A stretch of DNA of 63,503 nt, filler included, from Patellaria atrata CBS 101060 (taxonomy: Eukaryota): NCBI GenBank assembly GCA_010093705.1. It is 5 parts of 4 records of this genome, joined end to end, with 100 filler letters (N's around TTAATTAATTAA, not from the genome) between each part and the next. Parts side by side here need not be neighbours in the genome. Positions count along the whole stretch, not along the records: positions 18,655 to 44,769 come from MU006129.1; 4 more parts are not named here. One strand, written 5' to 3'. Under the pieces are notes generated by a model. It worked only from the letters and a program-made list of their open reading frames with translations. It was not told the DNA's origin and made no database searches. Positions within the stretch are counted from its first letter, which is position 1; each line of letters starts with the position of its first letter. The translations under genes were made by a program, and so were the position numbers. Below are positions 8,605-44,869 of this stretch, one piece after another.

Positions 8605-11600
8605 TCATATAGTATCATCAAAACGTCTCTTTTTAGTTAGGTCTGCTCTCGAATATCCACAATAAAGATATATTGTCTTACTCCGACCAATATACAGTAT
8701 ATGTTCTGGACCGGATGCAGCCGTGAGTGAGGAGATAGTGGGCGGATCGGTGAGCACTTGGAATCCATAACTGAATACACCGCACTCTTTAATCGCTGCT
8801 TTACATTTGTCGTAACCTTGAATGAAGTTTTCTAACTTCGAAATCGGAAAATAAAGCGGCTTCCTGTCATATGACTCTCCGGTATAGTATATGATATTGA
8901 CGGTGATTGTGTCCTCAAATGGACCGGTTTCATACGTTGGAAAATATTTCTCAAACTCTTCGTAACCTATTGTAGCAGTTCCGTCTTTCCGGCGCATAAG
9001 TTGGCCTTCAAGATTATGCCGTTCTATGGTCAGATCACTCAATTGCTTTTGGAGCGTCTCAGCTTGAATCTGTGTCACGCGCAATTGATCCTTTGTGGTA
9101 ATGAGCTCTCCGTCATTTATTCGCAATTGATCCTTTATGCTGATAAGCTCTGCATCTTTTGCTCGCAATTGATCTTTGATGCGGATAAACTCTACGGCTT
9201 CTGATGCCGATGCACTCAGTTTTTCTTTAAGGTGTCCAAGCTCCTGCTCCAAGTTCCTCTGGACCTCAGAAGCGATTTTCAAATCCTTTTCCTTTTCCTC
9301 TAATATGTCTGAAAGTCCCTTTTGTCGTTGCTGTGATTGCTCCAGTTCAGTTTGCATTACCTTGTTCTCAGCCTCCATACTCTTGATTCGCAAATCGAAA
9401 CTAATATTTTCTCTCTGAAGTTGATCGACGCGGTCTCGGGAATGGTCGGCCTCTGTATCCGATATAAAATCATCAAAGAGATAAGTTTCCGAAGCCACCG
9501 TCGCCGGGTTAATCTGCTCCAGCTCACTTCTTAATTGAGTGTTATCATTATGTAAGGATAGAAGCTCGGTTTCTTTACTTTTTAATTGCTTAGATTCGGT
9601 GTCGAGACGATTTTTCAACTCTATGTTCTTCTCGATCAGTTCCCCATTTTCATTCCGTAATGATTGAAGCTCGCTTGCTATATTTTCTGACTGCAAGGCT
9701 TCGGTTTTGATACGATTTTCCAACTCTATATTCTTCCGGATCAGCGCCCCGTTCTCATCCCGTAAGGATTGAAGCCTGCTTTCTATATCTTCTGATTGCA
9801 AAGCTTCGGTTTGGAAACGACTCTCTAACTCTGTGTTCTTCTCGATCAGCACCGTGTTCTCGTTTCGCAAGGCCTGAAGCTTGCTTCGAGTATCTTGCAA
9901 ATCCACGGTTTCGGTTTCAATACAACTCTCCAATTCCGATTTTTTCCTTACCAGTGCTGTGTTCTGGTTTCGTAAGAATTGAAGCTCGGTCTCTAGATTT
10001 GTCGATTATGTAGATTCCGTTTCTATGCGACTCACCAACTCTGATTTTTGTTGAAGTAGTGCCGCATTTTCCGCTCGTAGATTGTTGGATGCCATCTCGA
10101 GTTCCTATACCTTTATGAGCGCTTCTTGTAGCTGAGCTGCAGCTTTGGAGAGTCGCTCCGGCCAATTGTTATCAACGTTATGTCCTTCCGATATAGGCTC
10201 CGTATTGCGGCTAAAGTTTGACGGTGGATTGAGATCGTTTGAAATCACTAGGTGTTGGGAAATTGACTGGAACAATTAGTACAACTGAGAATCTATACGT
10301 AGTAGTCATACCGTACGGTATTTGGCCCGATTCTGAGAAAAGAGCGAAAGAAATCACATTTAACGAAATGTGAGGTTATATGCTGTCCGTTATTATCAGG
10401 TGACATACATAAATATGGGAGGAACATTGAGTCTAGATCTCGAGTATGGTCCTCCTCAAAGGGACGACCACAACGTCGCTCCAGCGGTAACGGACTACTG
10501 CTCGTAAATACTGGGGTAATACTTTGGCCAATCGGCCTCGATGCTTCGCGAAGGATAGTTGCGATTTTGTCTACACTTTGGATATCGTCACAGCCCGCTT
10601 GGACTTCCTGGAGGCATCGAAGTGCTTATTTACGGAATGGATCCTCTTCCTGCAGTTCTAGGGTTTTAGTGGTCCGAAAACCCAACCGAACGGCCAAGTC
10701 TCCGAGTCTATGCCATAGAACAAGATTCGGATGTTTCGGTGTCGGCTTTTCTCGCCCTTGTTCTTTTCTAGGAAGTGTGGATGTCATAGCTGGGTAATGA
10801 CGCATTGCAAATGCCCACAATTGGCCAAGAGCGTAAAGTTGGTCCTGCGCTCCTGATGCAGAAGATCGCAGATGGCCAAGTCCTTCAGCAAGCTCGATAT
10901 AATTCACAGGTGGTGGGAAGTAGTGCGCAAATAAGCCCTTTCGAATAGATTGCTTCTTCTCACCACCTAGTAGGGTTTTTAATATTGAGCAGCATGGTTC
11001 AAGCCAAGGAAGATTTTTGAAGAAAACGCGTAGACTCGGTACTAAACAAGGAAGGCTACATAGGTTCGTAAGGATTTCCCGCCTCATTCCGGGGTCTGTG
11101 ATGCTAGCGAAGATCTCACCAGAGGTCATCAGCTCTTCGACTCTATGGGCGTCGGACTGAGAGAAGCCTGGAGCAAGAAGCTCTAACTTTGAAACTGTAA
11201 CCATGTCGACTGCTGACTTTGGACCACGGGAGAGGATTCGCTCCCAAACAGCAGATATGTGTTTCAGTCCGTTCAATAACTCCTACAACATGTTAAAAAT
11301 GCATGAAGTGGTGAATATCTCGGGATTACTTTACCTCGTTACACTTTAAGCCAAGGAAACAGTGTAAGTTACCGAGCTTTATGGGCGGCCATTGTCCGGG
11401 CATGTCTAACAGTTTGTCAAACTCCGCTGCGAAGAGTTTATCCTTCAAAAGTTGCTTCAAATCCTTTTGTTTGCCAAGTGTCAGGCGAGCCCGCCAGCGA
11501 TTCTCGGCCTCTTCGTCTTTGTTTCGTCGGTATAACATGATCTTGTACCATTTTTCGCCATCTTTATAGTCTTGCTCGTTGATAGATTGCTCTATAAACT

Positions 11601-12103
11601 GCGTAGCTATGGATTCCGGTAGCCCTAGTGTGAATGAGTATCTCGAACGCAAAGTTGTATTAAGTAATTCTACACTTACCTTCTGCATACAATTTCACAG
11701 TCCACCACTTGTCATTCGCGTCTAAAAAAGCTTCGGCAGCTCGAACCCGGTGGAGTCCATTTAAGCACAACAAGCTTTCGATAGGCAATAGAGGTGGTAA
11801 GTCGGCCGATGCCTATTTGAGCTGCTCGATAGTAAAGCCCGATAATGACAAGGCACGACATAACTGGTCGTCTTTCACAAGGGCGACGATGAAGTTGTCC
11901 TCATCTGTTCGGCGACAACCCTCGAGCTCAAATGTTTTCCTTAGAATTTCTACTTTCTTTACGTCCTCTTGCCTATGATATATATTTACTGGAGTATCGT
12001 TAAATCGCAAGCAAGATAACCTGACACGAGCCAGCCCTCGAAAGTATCCGGTAGTTGTAGCGCTAAATGCACGCTCCGCTTCGGTCCCACAGCCCGGGGT
12101 CAT
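8605..12103 (-). pseudogene. DUF3723-family gene (Starship-associated) fused to a long repeat coiled coil; RIP-inactivated
   Basis: YFRGLARVRLSCLRF...EGCRRTDEDNFIVALV, CLNGLHRVRAA...WWTVKLY, KLELLAPGFS, VPSLRVFFKNL, LWAFAMRHYP, RRCGRP. Introns link the ORF pieces. In-frame stops at 11813, 10626 and two in the coiled coil all fit CAG/CAA>TAG/TAA. Confidence 0.85.
9545..10082 (-). repeat. Tandem 35-aa (105-bp) coiled-coil repeats, about 5 units
   Basis: Units such as LRNENTVLIEKNTELESRFQTEALQSEDIESRLQS and LRDENGALIRKNIELENRIKTEALQSENIASELQS. Confidence 0.8.
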
Positions 12104-18554: not shown

Positions 18555-18654
18555 NNNNNNNNNNNNNNNNNNNNNNNNNNNNNNNNNNNNNNNNNNNNTT
18601 AATTAATTAANNNNNNNNNNNNNNNNNNNNNNNNNNNNNNNNNNNNNNNNNNNN
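18555..18654. other. Artificial contig spacer
   Basis: 44 N + TTAATTAATTAA (stop codons in all six frames) + 44 N. Confidence 0.97.
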
Positions 18655-20059: not shown

Positions 20060-20513
20060 TGTGAGATTGTGGATAACTGAATGTAGTCACTTGATTCTTC
20101 GTACAACTACGGATTCTATCTAGTGTTTATATAATGATACACAGCGAATCCGACCTCCTGTTGCTCTTGGTCGGTATTGAATCCGAAGCACAACTTTTCA
20201 TGGTCCTACTTGGCCCACCACGCGATAAAGTTCCTGTTTGTCTTCTCTGTTCCCGTCACTATACCAACTGGGTTCTAGAGAGAAATATTCGCATGTTCCC
20301 AGTCCCCGTTTTGCTAGTGCTCCCGGTTTCAATGGGGATAAAAGACTCGACAAGAGTGTTCTGGTTCTATTGCTAGGAACACCTTTTCGGATGAAGGGGA
20401 GAATAGATAGTAGTTTGGCCTAGTCACCTAGAGAACGCCTGCGAGGGATTTCTAATATACTTGCTTCAATATGGGCAAACTCAAACGTGACCACTGCGAT
20501 AACGAGTCTAACA
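20060..20513 (-). repeat. Probable solo Copia LTR (about 454 bp) without TSD
   Basis: The first ~77 bp (plus strand) match the LTR at 53270 (TGTGAGATTGTGG.TAACTGAATGTAGTC...ATAATGA). The putative other end is TCTAACA at 20507-20513. The flanks differ (ATCAG vs CCGTC). Confidence 0.6.
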
Positions 20514-22925
20514 CCGTCGGTAAAAGAAAAGGCGAGGAGCACATCGCGGTTGCATTGCGAGGGCAATTCTTTGCCGCAGAACAAGTGCTAGCTGTTGCCG
20601 TGCGAAAGCCTGTTGCTGTAAAATGGCACGTTGCTGGAGCCCGGTTTCCCACTCGTTCCACGTTAATGGAGACGGCTGAGGGGGCGGCTGTACTATATAA
20701 TTCCGGTTGATGATGGGTCGGTTGGCCTTTCTGTATGGAATTACGGAGATCTCGGTGAACTCCCAGCGTGTCTTAAGGTGGGGTTTAGACATGAGATAGA
20801 CCATATACTCGCCGTAGATGACGGCGACGTAGTACTCGGCCGTAGCCCTTCTGCGACTGTCTGCTTTGGGGATGAGAATACCCTCGATGCCGGCACGGGC
20901 GAGTCGCGCGCAGACCGATTTCTTCCAGTCGCTGTACGCATACGTCATCCTTAGATGGCCCATCTGCGTGAGCATTGTGGTAGTCGGAGTGCTGATCCGT
21001 GCCGGCCGCGACCCCATGCCCGAGACAAGGTACAGCCGGCCCGGCTTCTTCAAGCGTGTCTTCAGCGCATTATTCGAAAGACCAGAAAGGCGGAATTTCA
21101 TTTGTAGCTTGGTCCACCGCGCCTGCTTGACCTTTTGCGGTTTAGCACCCACCCAGGAGATCAACTTGTCCATCGGACGACGATAGTTCCAGTCTTTCAA
21201 CGGTACCACGCCGTAGTCATGATATTTGAACCTCTGTATAGCCCACCGGTCGAGCTGATAAGGGCCGGAGGTGCGCTGGCTGGGCCACTTATCCCTGACC
21301 GTCTGGGCGGCTGCTCCAATCGTCAGAATCCAGCGACTGGTAGGTGGCTTGAAAGTCGAGCCGGAATTGATCACGAAGACGCCGTCACCAAGCACATTCC
21401 AGCGACCCTGGATGCGATCCCACTGGATAAAGAGCACAAAGCGGCGGTCGCCGGTTGTTCTGCCGCCGATTGGGGTGAGATACGTCCCGACTTGGGCTTT
21501 GCCGACTCTGCCAACGTAGACGACCTGGACGTTGCTTGTTCCGGCTGTGAGTCCAGGTGCGTGATAATAGAGACGCCCACGGTTGGTCTTGAGTGATATC
21601 TTGGCAATGCCACGTCTGGAATTGATGATACGGAAGTTGGACCATGGCCCGAAGGAAAACATGCGGGCGTTGATGATATGCGGGTGCGAATGCGTTACAA
21701 AGAGCATGTCAAACCGATCGATGTAATCGTCAAACGCGTCGACATACCGGCCCACCCATCTAGAAGGGCCCGCATTTGAAGTATAAACCGGTTGGCCGTT
21801 GGCCAGGGTGTCCGGGCACCGAGGAAGAATGCGGGATATCGGGTCCCGGGGATACCTACTCCCACCAACGCCGTTGATAGTAAACCACGATGGTCCGATT
21901 TTGCTGATGGCTGCTGTCTTCCGTGCGAGATCGCGAAACAGGTCCTTATAGGTTCGCACATCCCGGAAAGGGTCGATTTGAAGGCCGAAGCAGAGCATGA
22001 CGCTGTAGACAATGTCGACTGGGTGCCCGGACGTGCGCAGAAACATGCTCCTCCATATTCCGGCCGCACTTATCAGCCGGTTCGGGTGTATGGCGGTACG
22101 GAGCGCATGTCTTGGGACGTACTTCCTGGTGGGCGCAGCATAGAGGCCATCCAGAACCACGACATTACTATAGGGTGCACTGAAGTTATTGTCAGCCATG
22201 TCAAGAAGGTCCCTTAGACGGATGAGTCTTTTGTTCGGCTCCCCCGTTACGATCATCAGCGGATACCGGTTGCCAGCTGTGTCCCGAACACTGGTGGAGC
22301 CCGGCGGACCTGGCCAGAGCACGTAGACCCAGGTCTGTCGCCAGTTGACGAAAGACTCCTGGAGGGTCCACGCTCTATCCATCCATCCAGTAGGGGTGCC
22401 GACCGACTGTACCCGCGGAATGCCTCCAATCATGACTACCACGGATGCCGCGTTTTCGTAGATATCCCGCATAATACAGATCTGAAATGGGACCTCAGAG
22501 CCGCTGGCGGCTTTCTGGTCTATGCAGAGGAAGTCGAGCCAGATCCAGCCGGCGCCGAGCTGCGCGGCCGCATTTGCAATTTGCACGAGACCTACCCAGC
22601 TGATATCCTTGTAGTATGGGGGACTTTTGATCTTGATCCTTAGTCTCCGAATCATCATTCCACCTGTATAAGCGGCGGAGTCGACCTCAGCGCCGTATCC
22701 CCAAACGTGGGAAATAGCGATATAGGGCGGACTAATGGCCTGCAGGTCGCTAGAGAGAGTTTTACTAGGGAACCTGATGGATTTCCATTCATAGAGGTTG
22801 ACCTTGGGGTTCGACCTCAGGAGGTCTGCAACTTTGAAAGCTCGGAAAGCACCGTCTGTACGTCCACTTGGATAGACCCAAGTCCGTGGTGGTGTCTCCG
22901 ACTGAGAAGCCACGAATCGGACCAT
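20508..22925 (-). CDS. HET-domain protein with a long unrecognised basic/aromatic C-terminal region (about 805 aa, no intron needed)
   Basis: HET motifs PYIAISHVWG, WIWLDFLCIDQ, QICIMRDIYENAASVVV, WMDRAWTLQE. ATG at 22925. Confidence 0.9.
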   Translation of the reverse strand: MVRFVASQSETPPRTWVYPSGRTDGAFRAFKVADLLRSNPKVNLYEWKSIRFPSKTLSSDLQAISPPYIAISHVWGYGAEVDSAAYTGGMMIRRLRIKIKSPPYYKDISWVGLVQIANAAAQLGAGWIWLDFLCIDQKAASGSEVPFQICIMRDIYENAASVVVMIGGIPRVQSVGTPTGWMDRAWTLQESFVNWRQTWVYVLWPGPPGSTSVRDTAGNRYPLMIVTGEPNKRLIRLRDLLDMADNNFSAPYSNVVVLDGLYAAPTRKYVPRHALRTAIHPNRLISAAGIWRSMFLRTSGHPVDIVYSVMLCFGLQIDPFRDVRTYKDLFRDLARKTAAISKIGPSWFTINGVGGSRYPRDPISRILPRCPDTLANGQPVYTSNAGPSRWVGRYVDAFDDYIDRFDMLFVTHSHPHIINARMFSFGPWSNFRIINSRRGIAKISLKTNRGRLYYHAPGLTAGTSNVQVVYVGRVGKAQVGTYLTPIGGRTTGDRRFVLFIQWDRIQGRWNVLGDGVFVINSGSTFKPPTSRWILTIGAAAQTVRDKWPSQRTSGPYQLDRWAIQRFKYHDYGVVPLKDWNYRRPMDKLISWVGAKPQKVKQARWTKLQMKFRLSGLSNNALKTRLKKPGRLYLVSGMGSRPARISTPTTTMLTQMGHLRMTYAYSDWKKSVCARLARAGIEGILIPKADSRRRATAEYYVAVIYGEYMVYLMSKPHLKTRWEFTEISVIPYRKANRPIINRNYIVQPPPQPSPLTWNEWETGLQQRAILQQQAFARQQLALVLRQRIALAMQPRCAPRLFFYRRC

Positions 22926-24147
22926 ACTTTCCAACGGTGTCTCACAGTTCGGTTCGATCTAATAGTCAAAAGCGATACGCAAAATAAAGACACGATTGTT
23001 GTGAGACGAGAAGGATTGTGTGAACCTGAGTCGCATTGAAAGAGATACGAATGGAAGCGAGAAACGGACGCTCGACACTCTACTAGAACAGTGGTGTTAC
23101 GGCCAGCAACAACAGCTTCGTGGAAGAAGTCAACGATGGGCTCGTGATGGGCAAAGCGGTGGGAACCAGCAGTGCAGTTATGTACGAGGAAAGTATCTGT
23201 CCTGGCGGAGCCTCCGTATTAGATTATGAAAGGAAGTAATCCCTTTGGTCAGATAAGGGATGGGGGAGCAGAGGGAGCATAACAGAAAACAGGGTTTATA
23301 AGGGAAGGGGTACCTAAGGATACTCTTTCTTCATGTATTTGGAAACCTCCTGGTGCTTATATTAGTTTAGATTTGATTTGAATCTTAATTTTGACTGAAA
23401 GTTTGAAGTCTTTCAAGTTGCTATGACCCAAAGTGCAAAGGTCACCACGAATCCCTATCACAAACCGAGCCTTTAAGGATGTAATGAGAAACCTTGCAGG
23501 AACTAGACTTATCCAATTCCGTCTTAGCGAGAATAGACTCCACTCCTAAACCCCTTTAGCGGGTGCATGGGTAGTTAGAGGGACGCAAGCCACCCCTACT
23601 TTAGCCCATCGGTGGCTGGCAGGGTTCAGAGGACGTTATTTGACCTCTCGGAAAGCATTTTGGAAATAATAACCGAAAACACCGAGGACAAGACTGAGGG
23701 AGAAAAGTTGTGGCATTTTTCTTCAGAATAACGCAAGCTGAACATCCCCTGTTTGCTGACCTTATCGGGTCGAGGATAACAGGCTTAGAACCCAAAAGAG
23801 GAAATCCCCGCATCGACGCTGCTCTGCAGTAATATTGCAGTCTAATGACGCCTATCACCTTCAAGTCCCTGTTGATGCAGATATATTGTGTGACCTTTTT
23901 TTCTTTTCCCTTTAAAGAAAAGGCAACCAACGGGAAGAGTGAAAGAATTGGGAGTATGCCGTATATAAAGCATGTTCGTCCAAGGCCCGCTCCGGTGAAT
24001 AGCCCTTGCGGAAATTTCTGTCAGCAACACCCGGATAAGCTGAGAGCTCGCTGCTGGTACCTCCTGGTTTAAGAGACTTGAGGACATACCTGGTGGGAAT
24101 CAAACCGTTTGTAATTTTTTTTCTTTTTTGATATTCGAACAGCCACA

Positions 24148-25729
24148 ATGAATGCAGAAACGCTCCCTTTTGATAATCGTCTGTACCCTGCTTTAAAAGC
24201 GGTCTGGGTCAATATAGAGATACTTTTTAAATGTATGGTGCCATTCACCGGCCTGAAGGTCACGGCTTGCTCTCAAAGAAGTTGGCTGATGTATCGTGGC
24301 AAGACTACCCCTTTATACTCGTAATTCTTCCTGCGTTTTGGAGTGCTTCCACACTGAATCAACAACAATCTTTCGGGATCCTTTCTCTACTCGGCATTGT
24401 TTATTTTGGCAGTTTTTTGAGGCCAGTGAACCCTTCCACTCAAAGTGATGCTGGTACTGTTGCTACTACCCCCGATGGGCAAACCCTATTCACAGGCCTT
24501 CTCAATGCGCTTCAGGGACTGGCGGGACCTCTAGAAACCTGCGTGAAAGGTGAGTGACATTTTCTCGGGCGGACTCAGATCATGTCCCCAAAGTCACCTC
24601 TCCAAGGCTGCCGTTGCTGATTTAATCTGCAGTCAGTTTTCTCGTCGCTCTAGCCCTCAGCACCCCCTACAATAACCAACCCGCATCGGATTCCTTGATA
24701 TTCCAGCCTTGGACGTACGTCGTCCTCGCCATCGCACTTACCGTCATCGGAATCATCGCCCCGCCGCGAATATTTTCCGGCGCCGCGCGCTTTGCCTACT
24801 TGCAACACAACGCGGATTTCAGGCGGCACTACGAGTTACTTCTCACGGGTTGGGCATACTTTGCCTTCGCACTGCCCACCGCCTTTCCGGCCCTCTTCAC
24901 TTTCGTTTCGGTGGGCATCTTGTTCCTCAGCGTCCGGGCAGCCCTCGTGGTCCACCGCCACTACAGCACGATGGCCCGGGAAGTCGTCGATGCAGCAGCG
25001 GAGATTGCCGACAAGGCCCAAACGGGAGTCCAGCACGGTCGGGGGCGGTTACTTGTCGGCGAAGAATACGAGCGGCAGCTTCTCGGTATAGTAGCTGCCT
25101 CGCGGCGTGACGCCTTGGTTGCACTGTCGGTGCGAGCAACTGACTTCTTCGAGTGCGCGACGGCAGCGTGGGCCGCTATTGGGGTGGTGGTGACACCGGC
25201 CGAGGACGCGACCAAGAGGGCTCGCGATCTCGCTGATGCAGCCCAAGACGTGATCGATGTAGAGAAGCCCGAAGCAGATGAAGAGAAAATGGAGGAGCTT
25301 GCCCAATTTTTACTCCAGAGGGCGAACGACGCGGCTGCCGAGGGGGATGCCGTGCTGGGAAAGTTGCGCTCCGCACAGGAGGCTGTCCGGACGAGCCAGC
25401 GCGCCGAGGGTCAGGCGAGGACGGCGCGACAGGTTACTATGAAGAACGCGAGCGAGGCGGCCAAAGCTGCCAGTGATGTTGGCCAGAAATTGAAAGGGTG
25501 CTCGGAGCGGCTCTATCAGGCTACGCGGAATGCCGAAAAAGCAGTTCGGCTTGTGACCAGGGCTTCGGAGACGGCCGTTGAGGGTGATATTGACGCTGCA
25601 AAGGGCATTCTGGTGGCTGCGCGCGACGCCGCCAATGAGGTGGAGGCTGTAAGAGCTGTCATCAACTCCGCCGTAGATGGTAGCTATGTGATTTTGCTTG
25701 GCTTTTTGCAGAAGCTACCACTATCATAG
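24148..25729 (+). CDS. Multi-pass membrane protein with Ala-rich helical/coiled-coil C-terminus (paralog A); introns 24233-24303 and 24550-24632; about 475 aa
   Basis: Both GT-AG introns have branch motifs and restore one frame. Hydrophobic segments precede an Ala/Glu-rich helical tail. Homologous to the 29267-30514 gene. Confidence 0.8.
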
Positions 25730-25815: not shown

Positions 25816-26580
25816 CTAATTACCGATCGCTTCTTCTTCTTCAGCGACTCTGATTTCGCTATCATCATCGTTTGGCTTTGAATCACTGCCCAAGGAGCGT
25901 ACTGACTTCCTCTTAGTCTTCCTCCTAGGGGATGATGAAGACATGCCTATTTTGACCGGTGTCTCTCTCGAACCCTTGCCTTCTACCAACCACGGACGTA
26001 CGTCCCGGTCAACGTATGCCTTGGAAATACCTATCCGCAGCGCTTCTCGGAGCCCTTCCTCCATCCGGAGAATGTATTCGTCCCAAGGCATACCGGGACT
26101 CGTATACTTATTACTTAAATAAACGAGAGCTGTTGCCGGCGTGCCTCTTGGCCACGATTCAGAATCCTGAAGAACAGAGGGTTGACGATGACGGCGATAC
26201 CGAACGATGTTGGCGACGTCCCTCCCCAGCAGGCTTGGCGGAGCCTGAAAGAGCTCAATCTCGACATCAACCTTCTGGTAAGCTGTCGGTACACCCTCAG
26301 CAAGGTCTAGCAACCCCTCGTCGGAGCCTACCAGGCGGTAGCACACCCCATCGACATAGGCAGTCGGGTCGGCGACGACATTGGCAAAGCCGCGCTCGTT
26401 GATCTGGAATCGGTGATTGCGTAGACGTGCGCGACCAATGAAGCGGCTCTGCGGGCAGCGCCGGGCCATCTGCGAGAAGGAGAGGTTGCTACCATATGCA
26501 AAGTAGAGTGCTTGTTTCTCATTTCCTCCTCTTTCCGCCCCTTCTGCTCGACGCTTTTGGCTAGACGGAAAGGAGAGCAT
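25816..26580 (-). CDS. Gamma-glutamyl cyclotransferase (GGCT/AIG2-like) protein
   Basis: YFAYGSNL, MARRCP, GFANVV, VDGVCYRL, LDLAEGV (candidate catalytic Glu). Confidence 0.9.
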   Translation of the reverse strand: MLSFPSSQKRRAEGAERGGNEKQALYFAYGSNLSFSQMARRCPQSRFIGRARLRNHRFQINERGFANVVADPTAYVDGVCYRLVGSDEGLLDLAEGVPTAYQKVDVEIELFQAPPSLLGRDVANIVRYRRHRQPSVLQDSESWPRGTPATALVYLSNKYTSPGMPWDEYILRMEEGLREALRIGISKAYVDRDVRPWLVEGKGSRETPVKIGMSSSSPRRKTKRKSVRSLGSDSKPNDDDSEIRVAEEEEAIGN

Positions 26581-27306
26581 TGTGCGGGTTCCAAAGTGGT
26601 AAAAACAAGGGAGTTTGAAAGCGCACTTACGCCACGTTATCGGAGAAACAATCTGGAGATAAATGTCAGCACGTACGTACGGCTAATTGATACTTCATCG
26701 TCGTCCCGATCCGGCGATTGTCGATCATGCATCTCCTGGTGGTGCATTATACAGTAGTCGCATGCAGTAAGCCTGCATTTTCGCGATGCTACAGCACATA
26801 ACGTACGTGTACCATTCCGGCGCCGGTATGGACACTATACATACAGTAGTCAAACGTGCTCTCAACCCATTGGGCAACAAGTTTATTAGAACACGAGCAG
26901 CCAGCTTCGCGTACATTCAGCTCCAAGACGTCTGCAAACCTCCTTGTCGAGCAGCGGGAAGCAGTGCTAGCACAAGCCTAGTGCTTATGCGTGGAGCAGT
27001 TGGATTAAGGGTTGAAGCTCACAGTTCGAAACAGCCTGCCCTTCTTTCAACACAAAAAAATTTTGAGCCATACAAGCAATATTTTGAGGTTCAAATTTTC
27101 ATATCAGTATTTCTCATGTTAAGAGGGTTTCTAAAGTGCTCTTTGAATGTTGGTATACCTCAATTTCGGTCTTATAATTAGTTTAGAGAACAAAACGGCT
27201 TTTTCTACGTCTGCACGATTGATGATTCTAACTCTTGAACAATAGATCCTATTCTACCACTGGGCGCCTCTTCGTTGCCGCTACTGTAGATATCTGCAAA
27301 ATTACG

Positions 27307-28324
27307 ATGGCCCCTAAATTGGGCTTTGGCTGTGAATTGGAGATGTCGGCGGAGCCTAGAGTGTGGAAAAATCTATCAAGAGCGGAAAAGATTAAGAGAC
27401 TCGTACGAGAGCTCCGAAATCACCATCTCAGCGCTAAACCACTCAGTGGCTCACCCTCGAAGTACGACCGGTGGTGGATCACTGACGACGTGTCGATCAG
27501 TCTGGCCAATTTGAGTCCATATGCCAGTATGTCGAGGTTCCCTAGACGAGTCTGAAAGTTTTACTGATGTCACCAAAACCAGTCAGAATGGAATGCGTAT
27601 CACCCGTTACAAAATTTGATAGTAACTGGCAGGACGACATGCAGGAATTCTGGAGCGTACTGACTGGAGCATTCAAGGTAACACGCAACGACAGCTGCGG
27701 AACTCATGTCCACATCGCGCCATGGAAGAAAAATTTTACTATCAAACAGGCGCAGACCGTCGCCTTCGCGTGTTGCTTATATGAGCCCTATGTTGTATCG
27801 TGCCTGCCGGATAATCGGCGCACTAGCCGTTACTGCCAGCGAAACTCTCGAGTCGAAGGTCTCTTGCTGAAGACTTTGTTCGAGAGAAAGTCCATGTCAA
27901 AGATTGCGGCCGCCATCAAGAGAAAGAAAGATTTCAAGAAGCTTAGAGACTTCATGCAAGGTGACAACCGGTACGTCCTGTGGAACTTTAAAAACCTCCC
28001 CAACAAGCGAAAAAGCACGATTGAGTTCCGCGGCGGTCAGCACGCGCAGGATGCAGATAAGGCGGAATGCTGGATCACTTTTGCGGTCGTCTTTGTTATG
28101 ATGGCTCTCAAAGAGGTAAGTCAACGCATGATATCTATCCTATCCCGACTGACGAGGACTAGAACCTGCTGTTCTCGAGATCAACTTATAGGATGGCTGA
28201 TAACGATAGTTATGACGAGGTGCAGCGGTTTTGGAAGAGGTTTACGGATTTCGCCAGGACCCTAGACGTGGGCGATCATTTTCCATTCGTGTTTAAGAAG
28301 ATGAGCGAGAGGTGGCGGGAGTGA
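27307..28324 (+). CDS. Putative amidoligase (Amidoligase_2, COOH-NH2 ligase fold); introns 27527-27582 and 28116-28162; about 304 aa
   Basis: FGCELE, WWITDDVSI, MECVSP, SCGTHVH, RYVLWNF, STIEFR. Splicing of the two canonical introns gives an open frame. Confidence 0.9.
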
Positions 28325-29266: not shown

Positions 29267-30514
29267 TCATCCCAGGTGAGTTTTCCATAGCGCCTCGCGC
29301 ACCCTCTGCTTGGCGGACAGAAGACGGGCTTCCGCATCGACAGTCTTTCTAGCTTCCTTGCCTGCGTCTGCTACCTGGGCGGAGGCGGCGGCGAAGTCCC
29401 CTCCTTCGGCGAACAGCTTTGCCTGGTCGGCAATCCATTTCACCTTCTCATATCCATGGGCAACCACGGCCGCATCGGCAGGCATACTGTGGACAAGGGT
29501 TACTAGATCTCTGACGTTCTTTGTGACATTCTGAGCGTTCAGCACCTCATCTGACCGGCCCTTAAGATACAGCTTCGTGGCATCCTGTGACCTTTGCACT
29601 TGGGCCTGTGCTTCCCTGGCATGATTGACTATCTGCTCGGAAATGTTAAGAGCGGACTGAGCTGCTACGGTGAGCATGTCCGCTGTGGAGCTGCCATTGT
29701 CGTCTTCATTAAGATCAGCATCCTGGCATGCTTCTGCTTCTTCCACCATCTTCTTGGCCGCCTGTCTTGCACTCTCCAAGGGCTGTGTAATCTGCCCAAG
29801 AGAGGACCACGAGGTAGCAGCTACGTCAAAGAAGTCGATGGCTTTGAGGGAATCCATCAACCTTGAGTCCCGTCGGGCTGTTGACGCTATAGCTAGGGCT
29901 TGTTTTTCGAATTCATTGGCTTCTTCCATGTGTTTACTGGCTGACTGGGCAGCCAGGGCGGCGCGGTAGCAATACTCTTCCGCTTTTTTGGTGATATTGC
30001 GGGCTCCTTCACGATATCTAAAGAGAATGTACTGCCACGCCACTGGTAGCACCGCAATTGACCAAATACGAAGCATGGGAAAGAAGATCAAAGAGATCAC
30101 AATCCCGTTCATCGACCAACCGGGGAGGTGCTGACTCAACGATTGCATCCATTGGTTGCCCTCGAGGTAAGCCCATCGGATCGGCCCCGACGAGTTGCGC
30201 GTTGAGGAGATGAAGCCGACAACCGTCAGTGAAGTAAGCAACGCAACTACAGACCAGAGCTCAGGAGGGTATTGGGACATGGAGCCAGCGCCCCAGCCAA
30301 ACCAGCCGTTCCATCCCCCAATGAAAGGGAGTAAGGGAAGAAGAAAGTCTAACAAGGTTCTATGTGAGATAGAGGATAAAGAGAAGGATCATTCGTAAGA
30401 CTCACATTGATGTTGCTCCAAGAAGCGAAATATGCTCTGTGTAGCCGAGAGAGCGTCTAGAAATGTCGGAGGAGTTGGCTGCGCCGTGGTAGGGGGAACA
30501 GCACCAGAGGCCAT
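29267..30514 (-). CDS. Multi-pass membrane protein with Ala-rich helical C-terminus (paralog B); intron 30349-30405; about 396 aa
   Basis: ACCATGG start and a GTGAGT...CTCAC...TAG intron. EFEKQALAIASTARRDSRLMDSLKAIDFFDVAATSWSSLG aligns with paralog A EYERQLLGIVAASRRDALVALSVRATDFFECATAAWAAIG. Confidence 0.8.
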
Positions 30515-32769: not shown

Positions 32770-33738
32770 TCAGGACGACCTGTACGAACTGCTCGGTAGT
32801 AGCGGTCTTTTGATCGGCCTGCTATGGCGTGTACGTTCTGGAAGTCTATCTATAGACGTACCGTCGGGCGGTTGGCCCCCCATGTCCAGTAACTTTTGTT
32901 GAAGTGCTACGACCTTTCCTTAGGTGCCTGGTAGGAACAACTCTCGGGCTATCTTTCGTTACGGGCAGCGTCCTAGTCTACACTTATTACTATGTCTAGT
33001 TTAGTTGACCACAGTATATTATAACTATAGTGGTATTACAAGCCAGTCTACAAGTCAGTCTACTATACCTCCCCAACGAACGGATCGTAGCGCTGTCGAT
33101 TCGAGACTCCTAAACTTTGGAATCTCCAAATTCTAAGGAGAGATATACCGTTCTCGAGGTCGGAAAATACCGTCTAGTACTCAAATCACTTTAAATCCGT
33201 CGTCTTATAAAAGATTTCGTAGGTAGAATCCATAAGAATAAGCTTATTATATAAGGTACTGTCACAGCGGTCCAAAGCGTTCACCAAATCAGTTAAGTTT
33301 GGAAAGGTGGAACGGGCCGGAGTTGAGCCGGCCACTACCTTGCTGTAAGGAGCAATAAAGCGAAACCTATATCTATTTCTACTTCTCTCCTTTCTCTTCG
33401 GTTTAAGCTTTTTTTCTTTTCCAGTAGGTAACAAGTAACGATACCATCATAATTGCGTCCCGAGTGCTAGAGTACGCCACGTGAGTTCGTGATATATTAC
33501 AATTGAGCGCACAGGTCACTGTGGTAAGACGTATGGCTCGGCTTCCCCATCCAATAAGCCGGATTTACGATCTTACTTAACCACTTATTCATTAAGCGGG
33601 GGCTAATCCCCATTCTAATTCAGAATGGCTCTGCACTTAAGGCTTTTAATCCAAGAGCTGAATCATCCCATCTCAAAGGCACAGTTATCCCTCATTCTTT
33701 TCGACGACAAACCTCACCAATGTAACCGAATCATCAAC

Positions 33739-34998
33739 ATGGCCCCTTCTCGTCTGTTATCGCATCGCTCATTCGACGCGTCCATTGCCTCGGATCAACT
33801 TGAAAGTCAATGGGTTCTACCGGGCGATGTCTTCAGTGTTCTGCTTATTCTGGGAGGAGATGTCGTTGCTCGCGCACTCGCGCAACTCGCGGGCGGTGGA
33901 CTGACACCTGTCTCCTTTTCCTTCGGTAAGTTTGGCTTCCCTGTAAATCGATTGAGTGCTATACAAAGGCGCTAATATACTCATCATACAGGATGGGTGG
34001 CGTACTCGATCTCGGCTCTCGTCTCTAGCTTTGGCGAAAACAAGCTCATGCCACAGGACCCGGATTGCCATTGCAAGATCATCAATGGCAAGTCTGGCTA
34101 CTCCAGAGATAACACGAGCTGGATCTTGGGCAGAATGATGCGGGACTTCGACCACTGGCGCGATCCAGCTACAAAGCGGAAGACTGTTGAACTGCTAGAT
34201 CTGAAGTGGGAACAGATGAAATCCAAAACGCCTGAAGCGACGCGACCCACAAGGGCCGGGCTCGTGGTTACCGTCTACCAACCGAGCACCACCAAGCCTG
34301 CCGGTGTGCCAGAGCGCGATTATGTCTATTGGAGTGGAATTGCGACTCTCATAATGCAGCTAGGCATCGCGGCCGTACCGTGTGGACTTTTCGGTGACTG
34401 GGGGATCTTGATGATAACGGTATGTGGGTCGGCGCTTTCCCTAGTGACGGGCTGCCTCCCGCAGTGGGCGAACGAGAAGTGGTCTTGCCGCCGCGGGTCG
34501 AAAGATAACTTCATAATGACACGAGGCAACGGCTCCCAGCATGCGGTCGTTATCCTTGGCAATGGACATGGTTTGAACCTCGAAGACCTCGCCGCAGGAC
34601 AAGACAACATCGAAGTCTCGACGAACAAGCTAACGCGCGCGTCACTCTTCATTCTCGCGACACTCTGGATACTTCTCCTTATCAGTGCTGCCGGAATGAC
34701 GGCCAATACATGGTTTTTGCTCGCTGTCGGTGCTGTTGGAATAGTCCAAAATGTCTTCGTGGCAGGCTGGAGTCGGAGACCAGAGAACTTTGGCATTCCA
34801 CTCGATTTTGTTAAGGTCATTGGGCACCCGAAGGTTATGGATACGTTGATCGAGGTAGAAGATCGGTGCCCGCGTTTGGGTCAGAGCATGCGTGACGAAT
34901 TTTTCCCTGGAAAGCTGAATGAGAAAGAGGAAAAGATCTGGGAGCAATTTGAGCAAAAAGCCCGAAAAGCTCCTAAAACCAATGGCAATTGGACTTAG
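33739..34998 (+). CDS. Conserved fungal membrane protein of unknown function; intron 33926-33991
   Basis: VLLILGGDVVARALAQ...PVSFSFG|WVAYS, SWILGRMMRD, LPQWANEKW, TRGNGSQH, LNLEDLA. Canonical intron GTAAGT...CTAAT...CAG. Confidence 0.85.
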
Positions 34999-40179: not shown

Positions 40180-40821
40180 TGTGGACTGTAGGGCTATCAC
40201 TAGACCTTCCATCTCATCACTCTGGCCATCAATTGCTCTACCATCTTGAGGCTGCATTGTCTGCAACAATCAGGAATGGTTTTGCAACGACTTCTTGATT
40301 TAAATGGTATGCGTTTCAGCTGTAAAGCAGGTAATAAAAGTTTTTGTCAGAGATACTTTTGTGTTAGAGATCTGTTTTAATACCGTTTGACACAACGTGT
40401 CAAGCTAACGTTCCATACCACTATTTCCACTAGTCAGCATCACATTTACCCGATGGTAAGCTCCACCATATAAGGTAACTTAACACATCATGCAGCTTAC
40501 CAATAAACTCTGTTTTTGTCGGCGTGCTACTTGGAAAATAAGATAAGAAACGCTCTATCATAATATTCGTATTGCTTCTAGCGACTTAATTAAAGCGGAG
40601 TGTGCCTAATGAATACAACCGGCTTCATCGGTACTAGACCACGGAAGCTAGGCCCGTTTAACGCCTTCGCGTACACTGCCTCGACCGCTGACTTCACAAC
40701 CCACCCCCAGCCATTATAATCCATCAACCGCTTCTGTTGTCCCTCACAATTCGTAATCGCTATCTTTACCCCGGGCCGTTTGGTTCTCCTGCCGTCCCGT
40801 GCTAGAATCGATGTTATAGCG

Positions 40822-43800
40822 ATGCGACTTCTTCACTTTAATCATTCTGGAGGACTAATCTTGACGGACTTCGGCAGGAAGAGCATCCCGCCATATGCTA
40901 TTCTTTCACACAGATGGCGAGATGACGAGGTTCTCTTCGAAGATCTAGGAAGCGACACCTATAAAGAGAAGGATGGTTTTCGAAAGATTAAGTTCTGCGC
41001 TGAACGGGCGGCCCAGGATCAGCTCCAGTACTTCTGGATCGACACATGTTGCATTGATAAATGGAACCTCCGTGAGCGCTCGAAAGCGATCAACTCGATG
41101 TTTCGTTGGTATAGAAATGCAACAAAATGCTACGTATTTCTGTCGGATGTTTCGGTATCTACTGCGGCGGAGATACCCCAACGAAGTACCTGGGAGGCAT
41201 CCTTCCGGAAAAGCGAATGGTTTACTCGAGGTTGGACACTTCAAGAACTTATTGCCCCAGTATCGGTCGAGTTCTTTTCCAGTGAAGGACTGCGGATAGG
41301 CGATAAAATATCTCTTAAACAGCTAGTATGTGAGGTTACTGGCGTTCCACTTAAGGCGTTATCGGGTTGTCCCTTAGACGAATTCACTGTATCTAAGCGA
41401 ATGGAATGGGCCAAACATCGCAAAACAACTGAAGAAGAAGACAAAATATACTGCCTTCTTGGAATTCTCGATATCTCCATGCCTACCTCCTATGGCGAGG
41501 GAAAGGAGAAAGCATTAAGAAGACTCCAGATGGAGGTGGAAGCAGCTACTAGCGCACCATCTATCATTCCGTTTTCCCGAAACGATCATTTCGTGGGTCG
41601 AGAATCACAGCTTGCGGAACTGGAAGCAAAGCTCCTTAGAGACAAGCAAACTACAATATCAGCGATAGTAGGACCCAGAGGGATAGGCAAATCACAGCTA
41701 GCGCTTGAGCTTGCATATAAAATAAGACAAAGGAACAAGAACTGCTCTATTTTCTGGATTGATGCAAGCGATATAGATAGTCTCTATCAATCGTATATAA
41801 GTATTGCCCAAAAGCTCGATGTTCCAGGGTGGGACGATGAGAATGCAGACATCAAGCAGTTGGTGAAATTTCAGCTAAGTAAAAAGGATGCAAAGCAGTG
41901 TTTGCTAATTTTTGATAACACGGAGGATATAACCCTAGGGTCCGGCGGGTTCTCCACGGCACGAGCTACTCACTTACGCGACTACCTACCACAGTCGGAA
42001 CTATGTTCTATCATCTTCACAACAATTAACAGTGACACAGCCAAGAGTTTATCATCGCAAAATATTGTAGAGTTAGGGGAAATGACACCGGATACGGCCC
42101 AAAGGATGTTAGAAAACTATCTAAATACTCCGGTTTCAAGAAGTGAGCAGCAAGAGGCAAAGCTTTTACTACAAGAGCTATTGTATCTCCCCCTAGCAAT
42201 TGTCCAAGCAGCAGCGTATATTAATACTAGAAACGTTACGTTACAGAAGTACCGATCACAATTAGTCAGGCGAAAGAAAGAAGCTCTCGAGCGTGATAGC
42301 GAATTATCTAAGGATAAGCTACAGGAGTACGGTATAAAAAGTTCTATAGCTACTACACTACTTATCTCGATGGACCAGATCCACCGTAGTGATACGCTAG
42401 CAGCAGACTATCTATTCCTTACCGCCTGCGTAGACCGAAAAGACATCCCGCTGGATTTTCTAGAAGCATCGTCTCCTCGTGAAAGGGAAGATGCGATAAA
42501 AGTTCTCAGCAGCTACGCGCTTATTTTAAGGCGGCCTGCCGAATCTGCACTCGATCTTCACCAACTAGTGCATGGCGCTCTACGGGAGTGGCTTCGAAAG
42601 CAGGAGAGGCTGGACCAATGGACCCGAAATGCTATTAAACAGCTACTCAGGGTGTTCCCAGATCCTTATCATGGTAATAGAAGTAAGTGGAGACGATTAC
42701 TTCCGCATGCTAAGTACGCTTTATCACATAGTCCCGTTGAACAAGAGGGCGGGAATAGATTAACCTTGACATGGAAGTATGCTATGACGCTATATAGTGA
42801 TGGACGGTACAACGAGTCTGAAGAGTTATTTATGCAAGTGATGGAGACGAGGAAGAGGGTGCTTGGGGACGAGCATCCAGACACGCTGACTAGCATGGCC
42901 AACCTGGCTTCGACGTACAGGAATCAGGGGCGGTGGAAGGAAGCCGAAGAGCTGGAGGTGCAAGTGATGGAGACGAGCAAGAGGGTGCTTGGGGATGAGC
43001 ATCCAAACACGCTAATCGGCATGGGCAACCTGGCGTCGACGTATAGGTATCAGGGTGGGTGGAAGGAAGCCGAAGAGCTGGAGGTGCGAGTGATGGAGAC
43101 GAGCAAGAGGATGCGTGGGGACGAGCATCCAAACACGCTGACCAGCATGGCCAACCTAGCTTCGACGTACAGGAGTCAGGGGCGGTGGAAGGAAGCCGAA
43201 GAGCTAGAGGTGCAAGTGATGGAGACGAGGAAGAGGGTGCTTGGGGACGAGCATCCAGACACGCTGACTAGCATGGCTAACCTGGCGTCGACGTACAGGA
43301 ATCAGGGGCGGTGGAAGGAAGCCGAAGAGCTGGAGGTGCAAGTCATGGAGACGAGCAAGAGGGTGCTTGGGGATGAGCATCCAAACACGCTGACCAGCAT
43401 GACCAACCTGGCGTCGACGTTTTGGGATCAGGGATGGTGGAAGGAAGCCGAAGAACTGGACGTGCAAGTGATGGAGACGAGGAAGAGGGTTCTTGGGGAC
43501 GAGCATCCAGACATGCTGGCTAGCATGGCTAACCTGGCGTCGACGTACAGGAATCAAGGGCGGTGGAAGGAAGCCGAAGATCTGGAGGTGCAAGTGATGG
43601 AGACGAGCAAGAGGGTGCTTGGGGACGAGCATCCAAACACGCTGATCGCCATGGCAAACCTGGCGTCGACGTACAGGAATCAGGGGCGTTGGAAGGAAGC
43701 CGAAGATTTGGAGGTGCAAGTGATAGAGACGAGGAAGAGGGTGCTTGGGGACGAGCATCCAGACACGCTGACCAGTATGGACAACCTGGCGTCGACGTTT

Positions 43801-44769
43801 TGGAATGAGGGGCGGTGGAAGGAAGCTGAAGAGCTGGAGGTGCAAGTGATGGAGACGAGGAAGAGGGTGCTTGGGCACGAACATCCAAATACACTGATCA
43901 GCATGGCCAACCTGGCGTCGACATACAGGAATCAGGGGCGGTGGAAGGAAGCCGAAGACCTAGACGTGCAAGTGATAGAGACGAGCAAGAGGGTGCTTGG
44001 GGACGAACATCCAAACACGCTGACCAGCATGACCAACCTGGCTTCGACGTACAGGAATCAGGGGCGGTGGAAGGAATCCGAAGAGCTGGAGGTGCAAGTG
44101 ATGGAGACGAAGAAGAGGGTGCTTGGGGACGAGCATCCAAACACGCTGACCAGCATGACCAACCTAGCTTCGACGTACAGGAATCAGGGGCGGTGGAAGG
44201 AAGCCGAAGATCTGGAGGTGCAAGTCATGAAGACGAGCAAGAGGGTGCTTGGGGACGAGCATCTAAACACGCTGACCAGCATGGCCAATCTGGCGTCGAC
44301 GTTTTGGAATCAGGGGCGGTGGAAGGAAGCTGAAGAGCTGGAGGTGCAAGTGATGGAGACGAGCAAAAGAGTGCTTGGGAATGAGCATCCAAACACGCTG
44401 ACCAGCATGGCCAACCTGGCGTCGACGTACAGGAATCAGGGGCGGTGGAAGGAAGCTGAAGATCTGGAGGTGCGAGTGGTGGAGACGAGCAAAAGGATGC
44501 GTGGGGACGAGCATCCAAACACGCTGACTAGCATGGCCAACCTGGCTTCGACGTACAGGAATCAGGGGCGGTGGAAGGAAGCCGAAGAACTGGAGGTGCA
44601 AGTGATGGAGACGATGAAGAGGGTGCTGGGGGACGAGCATCCAAACACGCTGACTAGCATGGCCAACCTGGCGTCGACGTACAGAAATCAGGGGCGGTGG
44701 AAGGAAGCCGAAGAGCTGGAGGTGCAAGTGATGGAGACGAGGAAGGTGGCGCTTGGGGACGAGCATCCA
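40822..44769 (+). CDS. Fungal NLR: HET domain - NB-ARC - TPR repeats (3' end truncated by the spacer)
   Basis: HET: PYAILSHRW, YFWIDTCCIDK, INSMFRWY, WFTRGWTLQEL. NOD: FVGRE, P-loop GPRGIGKS, Walker B LLIFDN, LPLAIVQAAAYI. Followed by 42-aa TPR repeats. Confidence 0.95.
42838..44769 (+). repeat. High-identity 126-bp tandem TPR repeats, 15 complete units plus a partial 16th
   Basis: Consensus VMETxKRVLGDEHPNTLTSMANLASTYRNQGRWKEAEELEVQ. Confidence 0.97.
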
Positions 44770-44869
44770 NNNNNNNNNNNNNNNNNNNNNNNNNNNNNNN
44801 NNNNNNNNNNNNNTTAATTAATTAANNNNNNNNNNNNNNNNNNNNNNNNNNNNNNNNNNNNNNNNNNNN
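44770..44869. other. Artificial contig spacer
   Basis: 44 N + TTAATTAATTAA + 44 N. Confidence 0.97.

Follow-up and report, generated by a model that had tools for sequence, protein, structure and literature searches.

The window analysed here, a stretch of 63,503 nucleotides from the fungus Patellaria atrata CBS 101060 (assembly GCA_010093705.1), contains a pair of genes at positions 25816 to 28324 that encode a gamma-glutamylcyclotransferase (GGCT) and an amidoligase. An earlier note on this DNA had described the two genes as divergent across 726 bp (26581-27306), with catalytic-type motifs kept in both (YGSN and a Glu in one; ExE, ExxSP, HxH and EFR in the other), and had read them as a bacterial-type gene neighbourhood in a fungus. 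Our gene models reproduce the divergent layout, and all of the motifs are present and conserved. The features of the pair are as follows.

25816..26580, minus strand: GGCT gene (C7orf24/GGCT type), ATG at 26580 and stop at 25816, 254 amino acids, no introns
26485..26496, minus strand: YGSN motif, GGCT residues 29-32, from the translation
26296..26298, minus strand: catalytic-type Glu95 of GGCT (LDxxEG), from alignment with human GGCT
26131..26271, minus strand: lengthened GGCT loop, approximately residues 104-150, as is usual in the ligase-linked GGCT clade
26581..27306, no strand: intergenic region of 726 bp, presumed shared promoter
27307..27526, plus strand: amidoligase exon 1, with ExE at E10/E12 and WWITxD
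27527..27582, plus strand: amidoligase intron 1, 56 bp, GT-AG, separating the WWITxD and ExxSP motifs
27583..28115, plus strand: amidoligase exon 2, with ExxSP, HxH, WNF and EFRGG; PF12224 at E 2.8e-16
28116..28162, plus strand: amidoligase intron 2, 47 bp, GT-AG; the model is identical to database protein P0122
28163..28324, plus strand: amidoligase exon 3, up to the stop

The GGCT protein exceeded the PF06094 cut-off (E 1.4e-7) in a Pfam profile scan of the open reading frames (ORFs) of the window. Its catalytic domain runs to about residue 197 and is followed by a low-complexity tail, both basic and acidic. The G, S and N of YGSN are invariant across 57 aligned relatives, as is Glu95, whose aligned counterpart in human GGCT, also a Glu, is mutated to Gln in PDB 3cry. 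A structure model of residues 21-197, with a predicted local distance difference test (pLDDT) score of 92.7, matched human GGCT (2i5t) at Z 17.7, with a root-mean-square deviation (rmsd) of 1.8 over 139 aligned residues, and Bacillus subtilis YkqA (2qik) at Z 16.6. GGACT/A2LD1 (Z 8.9) and ChaC (Z 10-11) scored well below human GGCT and are structurally more distant, despite the Pfam name of PF06094. Judged by sequence and model, the protein belongs to the GGCT-like superfamily and to its C7orf24 type, as fold, YGSN and catalytic Glu are all present, and it is predicted to release 5-oxoproline from a gamma-glutamyl compound. It differs from human GGCT and YkqA in its charged tail and in the lengthened loop typical of its clade. 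The loop spacer measures 40-72 amino acids in 11 of the 13 rows shown to be paired with a ligase (one partial model has 22; one was not parsed). It is 24-30 in seven of the 10 fungal rows that remain (three not parsed), and 13 in 8 of 10 rows of the bacterial sister group (two not parsed). The P. atrata copy is otherwise ordinary, with one departure from consensus at conserved columns against a median of 2.

The spliced amidoligase comprises three exons and 304 amino acids, and is letter-identical to P0122. The full protein scored 68.7 bits on PF12224 (E 9.1e-19) against a curated cut-off of 22, and its ExE (E10/E12), ExxSP (E77-P81), HxH (H115/H117) and EFR (E221-R223) motifs are 80-100% conserved in 90 homologues. 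At 24 positions, among them E10, E12, E77, H115, H117, R203, E221 and R223, conservation reaches at least 70% in both the fungal and the viral sets. The structure model (pLDDT 93) has the fold of the glutamine synthetase/glutamate-cysteine ligase (GS/GCL) superfamily, and a structure search matched it to YbdK (E 7e-6); the best scores were Z 13.7 for 1tt4 (rmsd 4.2, 242 aligned), 13.3 for plant GCL and 12.6 for the naphthylamine GS. YbdK (1r8g, 1tt4), plant GCL (2gwc), 1-naphthylamine GS (8wwu), GmaS (9qur) and PafA/Dop share the fold over the whole model (Z 9-13.7). They also share its Glu, His and Arg residues, which viral members have as well and which are expected to bind metal, ATP and the gamma-carboxylate. 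Identity to these enzymes is however 9-18%, and the fungal enzyme is compact. No solved structure of its own family was among the structure-search matches; the C-terminal region of Aspergillus FluG is a further GS/GCL-fold comparison system (an excerpt of PMC6478659). The profile score, together with a modelled GS/GCL fold carrying ExE, ExxSP, HxH, R and ExR, identifies the protein as an Amidoligase_2 (PF12224), predicted to carry out ATP-dependent carboxylate-amine ligation. An extra 48-88 nucleotides, the size of an intron, lie in the WWITxD-ExxSP interval of all 10 other fungal gene copies in which both motifs were parsed. Two sequencing runs cover the amidoligase introns unspliced, and these runs are probably DNA.

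P. atrata also has stand-alone members of both families with no partner within 10 kb, and the linked ligase and GGCT copies look specialised because each family is represented by such a partnerless gene in the same genome. The second amidoligase gene, of a wider family with an EYRPP motif, lies at C3 ~448170-449330, has an in-frame stop or an intron near its end, and is without a GGCT within 10 kb. Elsewhere, amidoligase domains occur in single gene models fused with HET (P0202), with an APH-type kinase (P0380) and with CFEM plus fungal rhodopsin (P0175), which may be gene-model artefacts.

The pairing is not peculiar to P. atrata. A pairing unique to this genome was part of what the earlier note had named as refuting its reading; instead, the pair turns up in four classes of ascomycetes. 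For both proteins, the highest-ranking homologues with a species name belong to Orbilia, where they have consecutive locus tags (TWF718_010449/450 and TWF106_000742/743). Cluster look-ups of 14 chosen proteins extended the list of pairings; consecutive tags or accessions give adjacency and not orientation. By this measure the pair is present in 10 named species, which belong to four classes. They are Orbilia javanica and O. oligospora (three strains, including TWF192 and TWF191), Claviceps purpurea (CPUR_06524/06525 and two more strains), C. africana, C. pazoutovae, C. humidiphila, C. arundinis and C. sp. LM77, Delitschia confertaspora (KAF2199492/93) and Hyaloscypha hepaticicola (PMD25923/24). 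Ligase identity across the four classes is 30-47%, and the P. atrata protein is 46% identical to that of Orbilia. Among matches listed, records labelled Orbilia oligospora contain ligase forms (P0001, P0119) that are merely 81% identical, and the GGCT of this species splits into six 90% clusters (P0017, P0018, P0022, P0035, P0037 and P0040); balancing selection or cryptic species are possible explanations of this diversity.

Orientation was examined in 17 metagenomic ligase loci, seven of which are too short upstream. In nine of the 10 with at least 1 kb of upstream DNA, a GGCT lies upstream on the opposite strand. Counted as independent cases, about six of seven are divergent, since loci L013-L016 look like one organism (identical match statistics). 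L013, L015 and L016 each hold two complete head-to-head units in tandem, and in L010, one of the loci with a short upstream part, the 3' part of a GGCT sits downstream of the ligase. The distance from motif to motif is 743-1022 bp in the six units measured, P. atrata included. A search for a shared promoter motif found no 7-9-mer common to six intergenic regions above shuffles, and there is no signature of repeat-induced point mutation (RIP) at the pair. P. atrata itself has a decayed second pair at C3 ~716025-716541, consisting of distant paralogues of which only the two 3' ends are left, facing outward; this remnant sits among housekeeping-like genes. Among matches listed, at least 20 cases, mostly Xylariales, have two amidoligases on same-sized contigs, often from different subclades. 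These are probably tandem GGCT-ligase units like those of L013, and the two ligases are shown as near neighbours only for CTRI78_v006382/6384.

Viruses carry the same two families side by side, as the earlier note had stated for phages. Among the 80 viral loci best by GGCT similarity, 58 have a ligase within ~4 kb of the GGCT, and all 58 pairs are co-oriented: the ligase comes first in 56 and the GGCT in 2, and none is divergent. Of 69 viral ligase profile matches 46 were checked, and all 46 exceeded the PF12224 cut-off; the best viral identity to the P. atrata ligase is 24-26%. The Blautia phage PV036434 is an example in which both amidoligase and GGCT are annotated. Viral scans with the P. 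atrata GGCT alone and with a fungal ligase alignment gave no confirmed match. Among viruses, the relatives nearest to the fungal GGCT clade are on the contigs L027 and L045; in each a ligase precedes the GGCT, and another ORF, which carries a YGTL (AIG2-like) motif, follows ~1-2 kb downstream. No ligase was found near the GGCT in 80 bacterial loci, 55 of them with near-full flanks, and PF12224 was present in none of the five genomes behind bacterial GGCT loci that were searched.

Iyer et al. (2009, Mol Biosyst 5:1636) reportedly described Amidoligase_2 beside AIG2/GGCT in phages, prophages and firmicutes, and proposed a role in cell-surface modification for phage. This neighbourhood is cited second-hand in a passage of PMC11318856. 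It resembles the fungal pair in that the same two families are adjacent with common catalytic residues, but it is co-oriented, whereas the fungal pair is head-to-head (in the nine of 10 informative loci), has introns and shares 24-26% ligase identity. GATase and ATP-grasp partners of the phiEco32 type are present in the phage locus examined and absent among the scanned fungal window and flank ORFs; an ATP-grasp match at L012, considered as such a partner, is a biotin carboxylase. The phage role in cell-surface modification does not transfer directly to the fungal pair. The label of a bacterial-type neighbourhood finds no support in that form: viral pairs are co-oriented, head-to-head is the fungal form, and both proteins lie within large fungal families.

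Searched with a ligase profile, 1.84 billion representatives yielded 5,331 matches at E <=0.001, and seven of the eight distant full-length matches looked up are from named fungi. In a ligase tree of 62 rows (mixture model, quick search) the fungal and viral sequences are separated with a support of 99 in the Shimodaira-Hasegawa-like approximate likelihood ratio test (SH-aLRT), and the GGCT-linked EFRGG ligases form a subfamily (SH-aLRT 99) nested among other fungal ligases. In a GGCT tree of 78 rows by 146 columns, also under a mixture model, the linked-type clade has a support of 99/87; it contains 27 rows, of which 12 were known to be paired when it was built and a 13th was added later. Sister to it is the GGCT of P. 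atrata that stands alone (92/84). All fungal GGCT rows group together (99/92), and the next branch (100/95) is a bacterial clade with Nitrospira and Thermodesulfobacteriota among its members. FastTree had placed the bacterial clade beside the linked GGCTs (0.935), a position lost under the mixture model. Thermodesulfobacteriota were rejected as donor: the matches, in 5 of 301 genomes, were weak (E 5e-11 or weaker), and their 1.5-kb flanks contained no GGCT.

On these comparisons the pair is old in fungi and no recent import, since each protein is nested within a fungal family and an intron-sized insertion occupies the same interval in 10 other ligase copies. As both proteins lie inside large fungal families, any transfer predates the split of these classes. 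Between the old transfer and the convergent clustering that the earlier note had offered, the best trees only lean, towards re-assembly from fungal paralogues rather than an ancient co-transfer with inversion. In approximately unbiased (AU) tests, p was 0.0506 when the linked GGCT clade was joined with the two paired viral rows nearest to it, and 0.346 when the EFRGG ligases were held with the viral set; neither test rejects a co-transfer. Over 13 pairs the ligase and GGCT trees have 6 of 10 splits in common, and both place Delitschia near Claviceps.

The reading we favour, with moderate confidence, is that the pair is a dedicated two-enzyme module for capping and uncapping with a gamma-glutamyl group, old in filamentous ascomycetes and inherited head-to-head. 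Linkage, folds and residues are observed; both reactions and the co-regulation are inferred. The amidoligase, a minimal enzyme of the GS/GCL fold, would activate free glutamate at its gamma-carboxylate with the help of ATP and Mg and join it to an amine, most likely that of an amino acid, a peptide or a protein residue. The GGCT would then cyclise the gamma-glutamyl group to 5-oxoproline and free the amine. Free glutamate is taken as the donor because cyclisation by GGCT requires a free alpha-amino group. A shared promoter would keep the eraser tied to the writer, which would make the cap transient or shield the cell from its own ligase. The earlier note had suggested a co-regulated pair with opposing chemistry; the linkage is indeed conserved, the two chemistries are predicted from fold and residues, and the co-regulation is presumed. 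There are precedents for the second step, as GliK and BtrG release 5-oxoproline and uncap biosynthetic intermediates, according to parts of PMC10086836 and 10.1101/2025.01.15.633182; the P. atrata GGCT, unlike GliK, lies outside any epipolythiodioxopiperazine (ETP) cluster.

The pair is real and conserved in fungi, where it is apparently undescribed, the amidoligase-GGCT partnership having already been predicted in prokaryotes. We found no account of the fungal pair in the literature, although fungi may be mentioned in Iyer et al. 2009 or its supplements. The PF12224 family is large and spans fungi, phages and other eukaryotes; we found no demonstrated substrate for it in the literature. A two-gene eukaryotic version without the phage partners, in tractable moulds, makes the substrate question directly testable, and GGCT supplies both a built-in read-out (release of 5-oxoproline) and, as a Glu95 variant, a substrate trap for the ligase product. 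A protein target would mean a reversible modification new to fungi, and a toxic ligase would mean a novel toxin-antidote chemistry. One gene partnership has been kept, or re-made, in viruses and eukaryotes in two different layouts.

Several observations weigh against a dedicated module. The ligase at L021 has no GGCT in 6 kb on each side, and a second ligase at L007 has none of its own. Among the 120 of 214 ligase matches listed, no adjacent-tag ligase was found for the linked-type GGCTs of Xylogone, Phaeomoniella and Phlyctema, for those of five other Orbiliales species, or for a 9-member O. oligospora GGCT cluster. The pair has no recurrent third neighbour among the 26 flank ORFs scanned of 53 listed, the rest mostly overlapping the pair. 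Three of the six splits common to both trees are near-duplicate cherries, and the co-divergence (Mantel r 0.30, p 0.018) falls to r 0.18, p 0.16 after three near-duplicates are dropped. The P. atrata ligase is off consensus at 14 conserved columns against a median of 4, the most of 86 rows, a count inflated somewhat by an alignment weighted to other subclades; the departures lie mainly around S218 and A228-A234, beside EFR. It also sits on a long branch in the gene tree. By its sequence it is an atypical example of its family, which may be drifting or retargeted.

The surroundings of the pair bear on what the module might do. The neighbouring features are the following.

24626..25729, plus strand: orphan ORF with hydrophobic N-terminus and Ala-rich C-terminus, converging on GGCT
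29267..30388, minus strand: second orphan paralogue, converging on the amidoligase
20508..22958, minus strand: HET-domain ORF, PF06985 at E 1e-10
40720..44814, plus strand: NOD-like receptor (NLR) of HET-NB-ARC-TPR type, about 16 TPR repeats
10335..11917, minus strand: DUF3723 (Starship-associated), the only DUF3723 locus found in the genome
6022..6573, minus strand: ferric-reductase FAD-binding exon (FRE, Starship-associated), PF08022 at E 1.7e-10

The two orphan ORFs bracket the pair in inverted orientation and are 27% identical (E 3e-26). They have no Pfam family, their Ala-rich C-terminus is helical, and only these two copies were found in the genome; as members of the module they were rejected, with no match in the 19 metagenomic loci L003-L021. 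The HET ORF is stop-free over 816 amino acids; the HET domain is N-terminal, and the C-terminal region, long and basic, has no Pfam family. DUF3723 and the ferric reductase are on one contig and the pair is on another, with a gap at 18555-18654 between them. A degraded Starship is defined for working purposes, in a portion of PMC9156397, as at least three conserved cargo genes without a captain; the window matches that description with DUF3723, FRE and an NLR, though over two contigs with the gap between. The gapped genome assembly gave at least three matches to a DUF3435 captain, all with stops and none on C38 or C41, and no element boundaries were found for the region. Unlike such cargo, the pair elsewhere adjoins housekeeping genes, as at L012 and L018. 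No amidoligase is among the cargo given in the supplements of PMC9156397 and PMC11162782, one of them covered in part; that part includes at least two GGACT cargo genes. Ankyrin, NACHT-N or HeLo genes lie less than 6 kb away in three of the six independent metagenomic loci scanned, including the unpaired L021, an uncontrolled count. PADLOC and NCBIfam scans of six proteins each gave no match.

Two versions of the capping and uncapping module can be distinguished, and we hold them about as likely as each other. One, a possible reading that we would not put higher, is a metabolic mini-pathway in which the cap protects, stores or detoxifies a small amine for unlinked enzymes before GGCT removes it, following the logic of BtrG in butirosin and GliK in gliotoxin biosynthesis. 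The release of 5-oxoproline by those enzymes fits it, the structural neighbours of the ligase include the small-amine glutamylating enzymes 8wwu and 9qur, and C7orf24, the type that the GGCT resembles most, cleaves dipeptides. The flank ORFs scanned, however, show no recurrent tailoring enzyme, transporter or transcription factor next to the pair, and a ligase and a cyclotransferase alone would make a futile cycle, which we count against it.

The other version, also tentative, is a conflict module (toxin-antidote or non-self defence) in which the ligase would harmfully gamma-glutamylate an essential target or a foreign molecule and GGCT would be the antidote. The HET and NLR neighbours, the degraded-Starship-like setting and the decayed second copy are hints of such a role. 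Carriage of the two families by viruses and prophages, the ankyrin, NACHT-N or HeLo neighbours, the HET-amidoligase model P0202, the two divergent O. oligospora ligases and the tandem copies all point the same way. Genes of these neighbouring kinds are nevertheless common in accessory regions, some loci adjoin housekeeping genes instead, the pair is kept in all Claviceps taxa seen, PADLOC and the Starship supplements were silent within the scope given above, and P0202 may be an artefact. A fuller scenario seems unlikely to us: a viral ligase-GGCT pair that was taken up before these classes diverged and was then turned head-to-head, now providing a widespread and undescribed reversible gamma-glutamylation of proteins or metabolites, a writer/eraser conflict module that works alongside HET and NLR genes.

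More doubtful still is that the arrangement is inherited baggage, either a shared promoter serving unrelated substrates or a ligase decaying as a relic inside a degraded Starship. The long ligase branch with its 14 departures, the DUF3723, FRE and NLR genes without a captain on C38 or C41, and the broken copy on C3 would suit this explanation. It does not sit well with linkage over four classes at 30-47% ligase identity in varied neighbourhoods, with intact reading frames and catalytic residues free of RIP, or with an unremarkable GGCT. That the P. atrata lineage recently gained a bacterial or phage pair by horizontal transfer, an idea suggested by the adjacency in viruses and by the bacterial sister clade with its FastTree position, is effectively refuted by the closer identity to Orbilia (46% against 24-26% for viruses), the distant relatives in named fungi, the common intron interval, the lack of any divergent viral pair and the bacterial loci and genomes without a ligase.

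Some minor observations concern the wider families and the region. A PF12224-type domain is enriched in Sclerotinia and Botrytis, according to an extract of PMC3158057, and an Epichloe amidoligase is missing in 4 of 12 asexual strains, according to one of PMC8982410. At 33619-34998 (plus strand) a spliced gene is predicted to encode several hydrophobic segments and belongs to no family of Pfam, PADLOC or NCBIfam. A DUF3435 captain-like match with stops at C37:14792-15772 is followed by a HET-NACHT gene and a kinase, and is possibly another Starship relic. The degraded-Starship-like region also has copia and gypsy retroelements, and very AT-rich blocks at positions 45-50 kb of the window.

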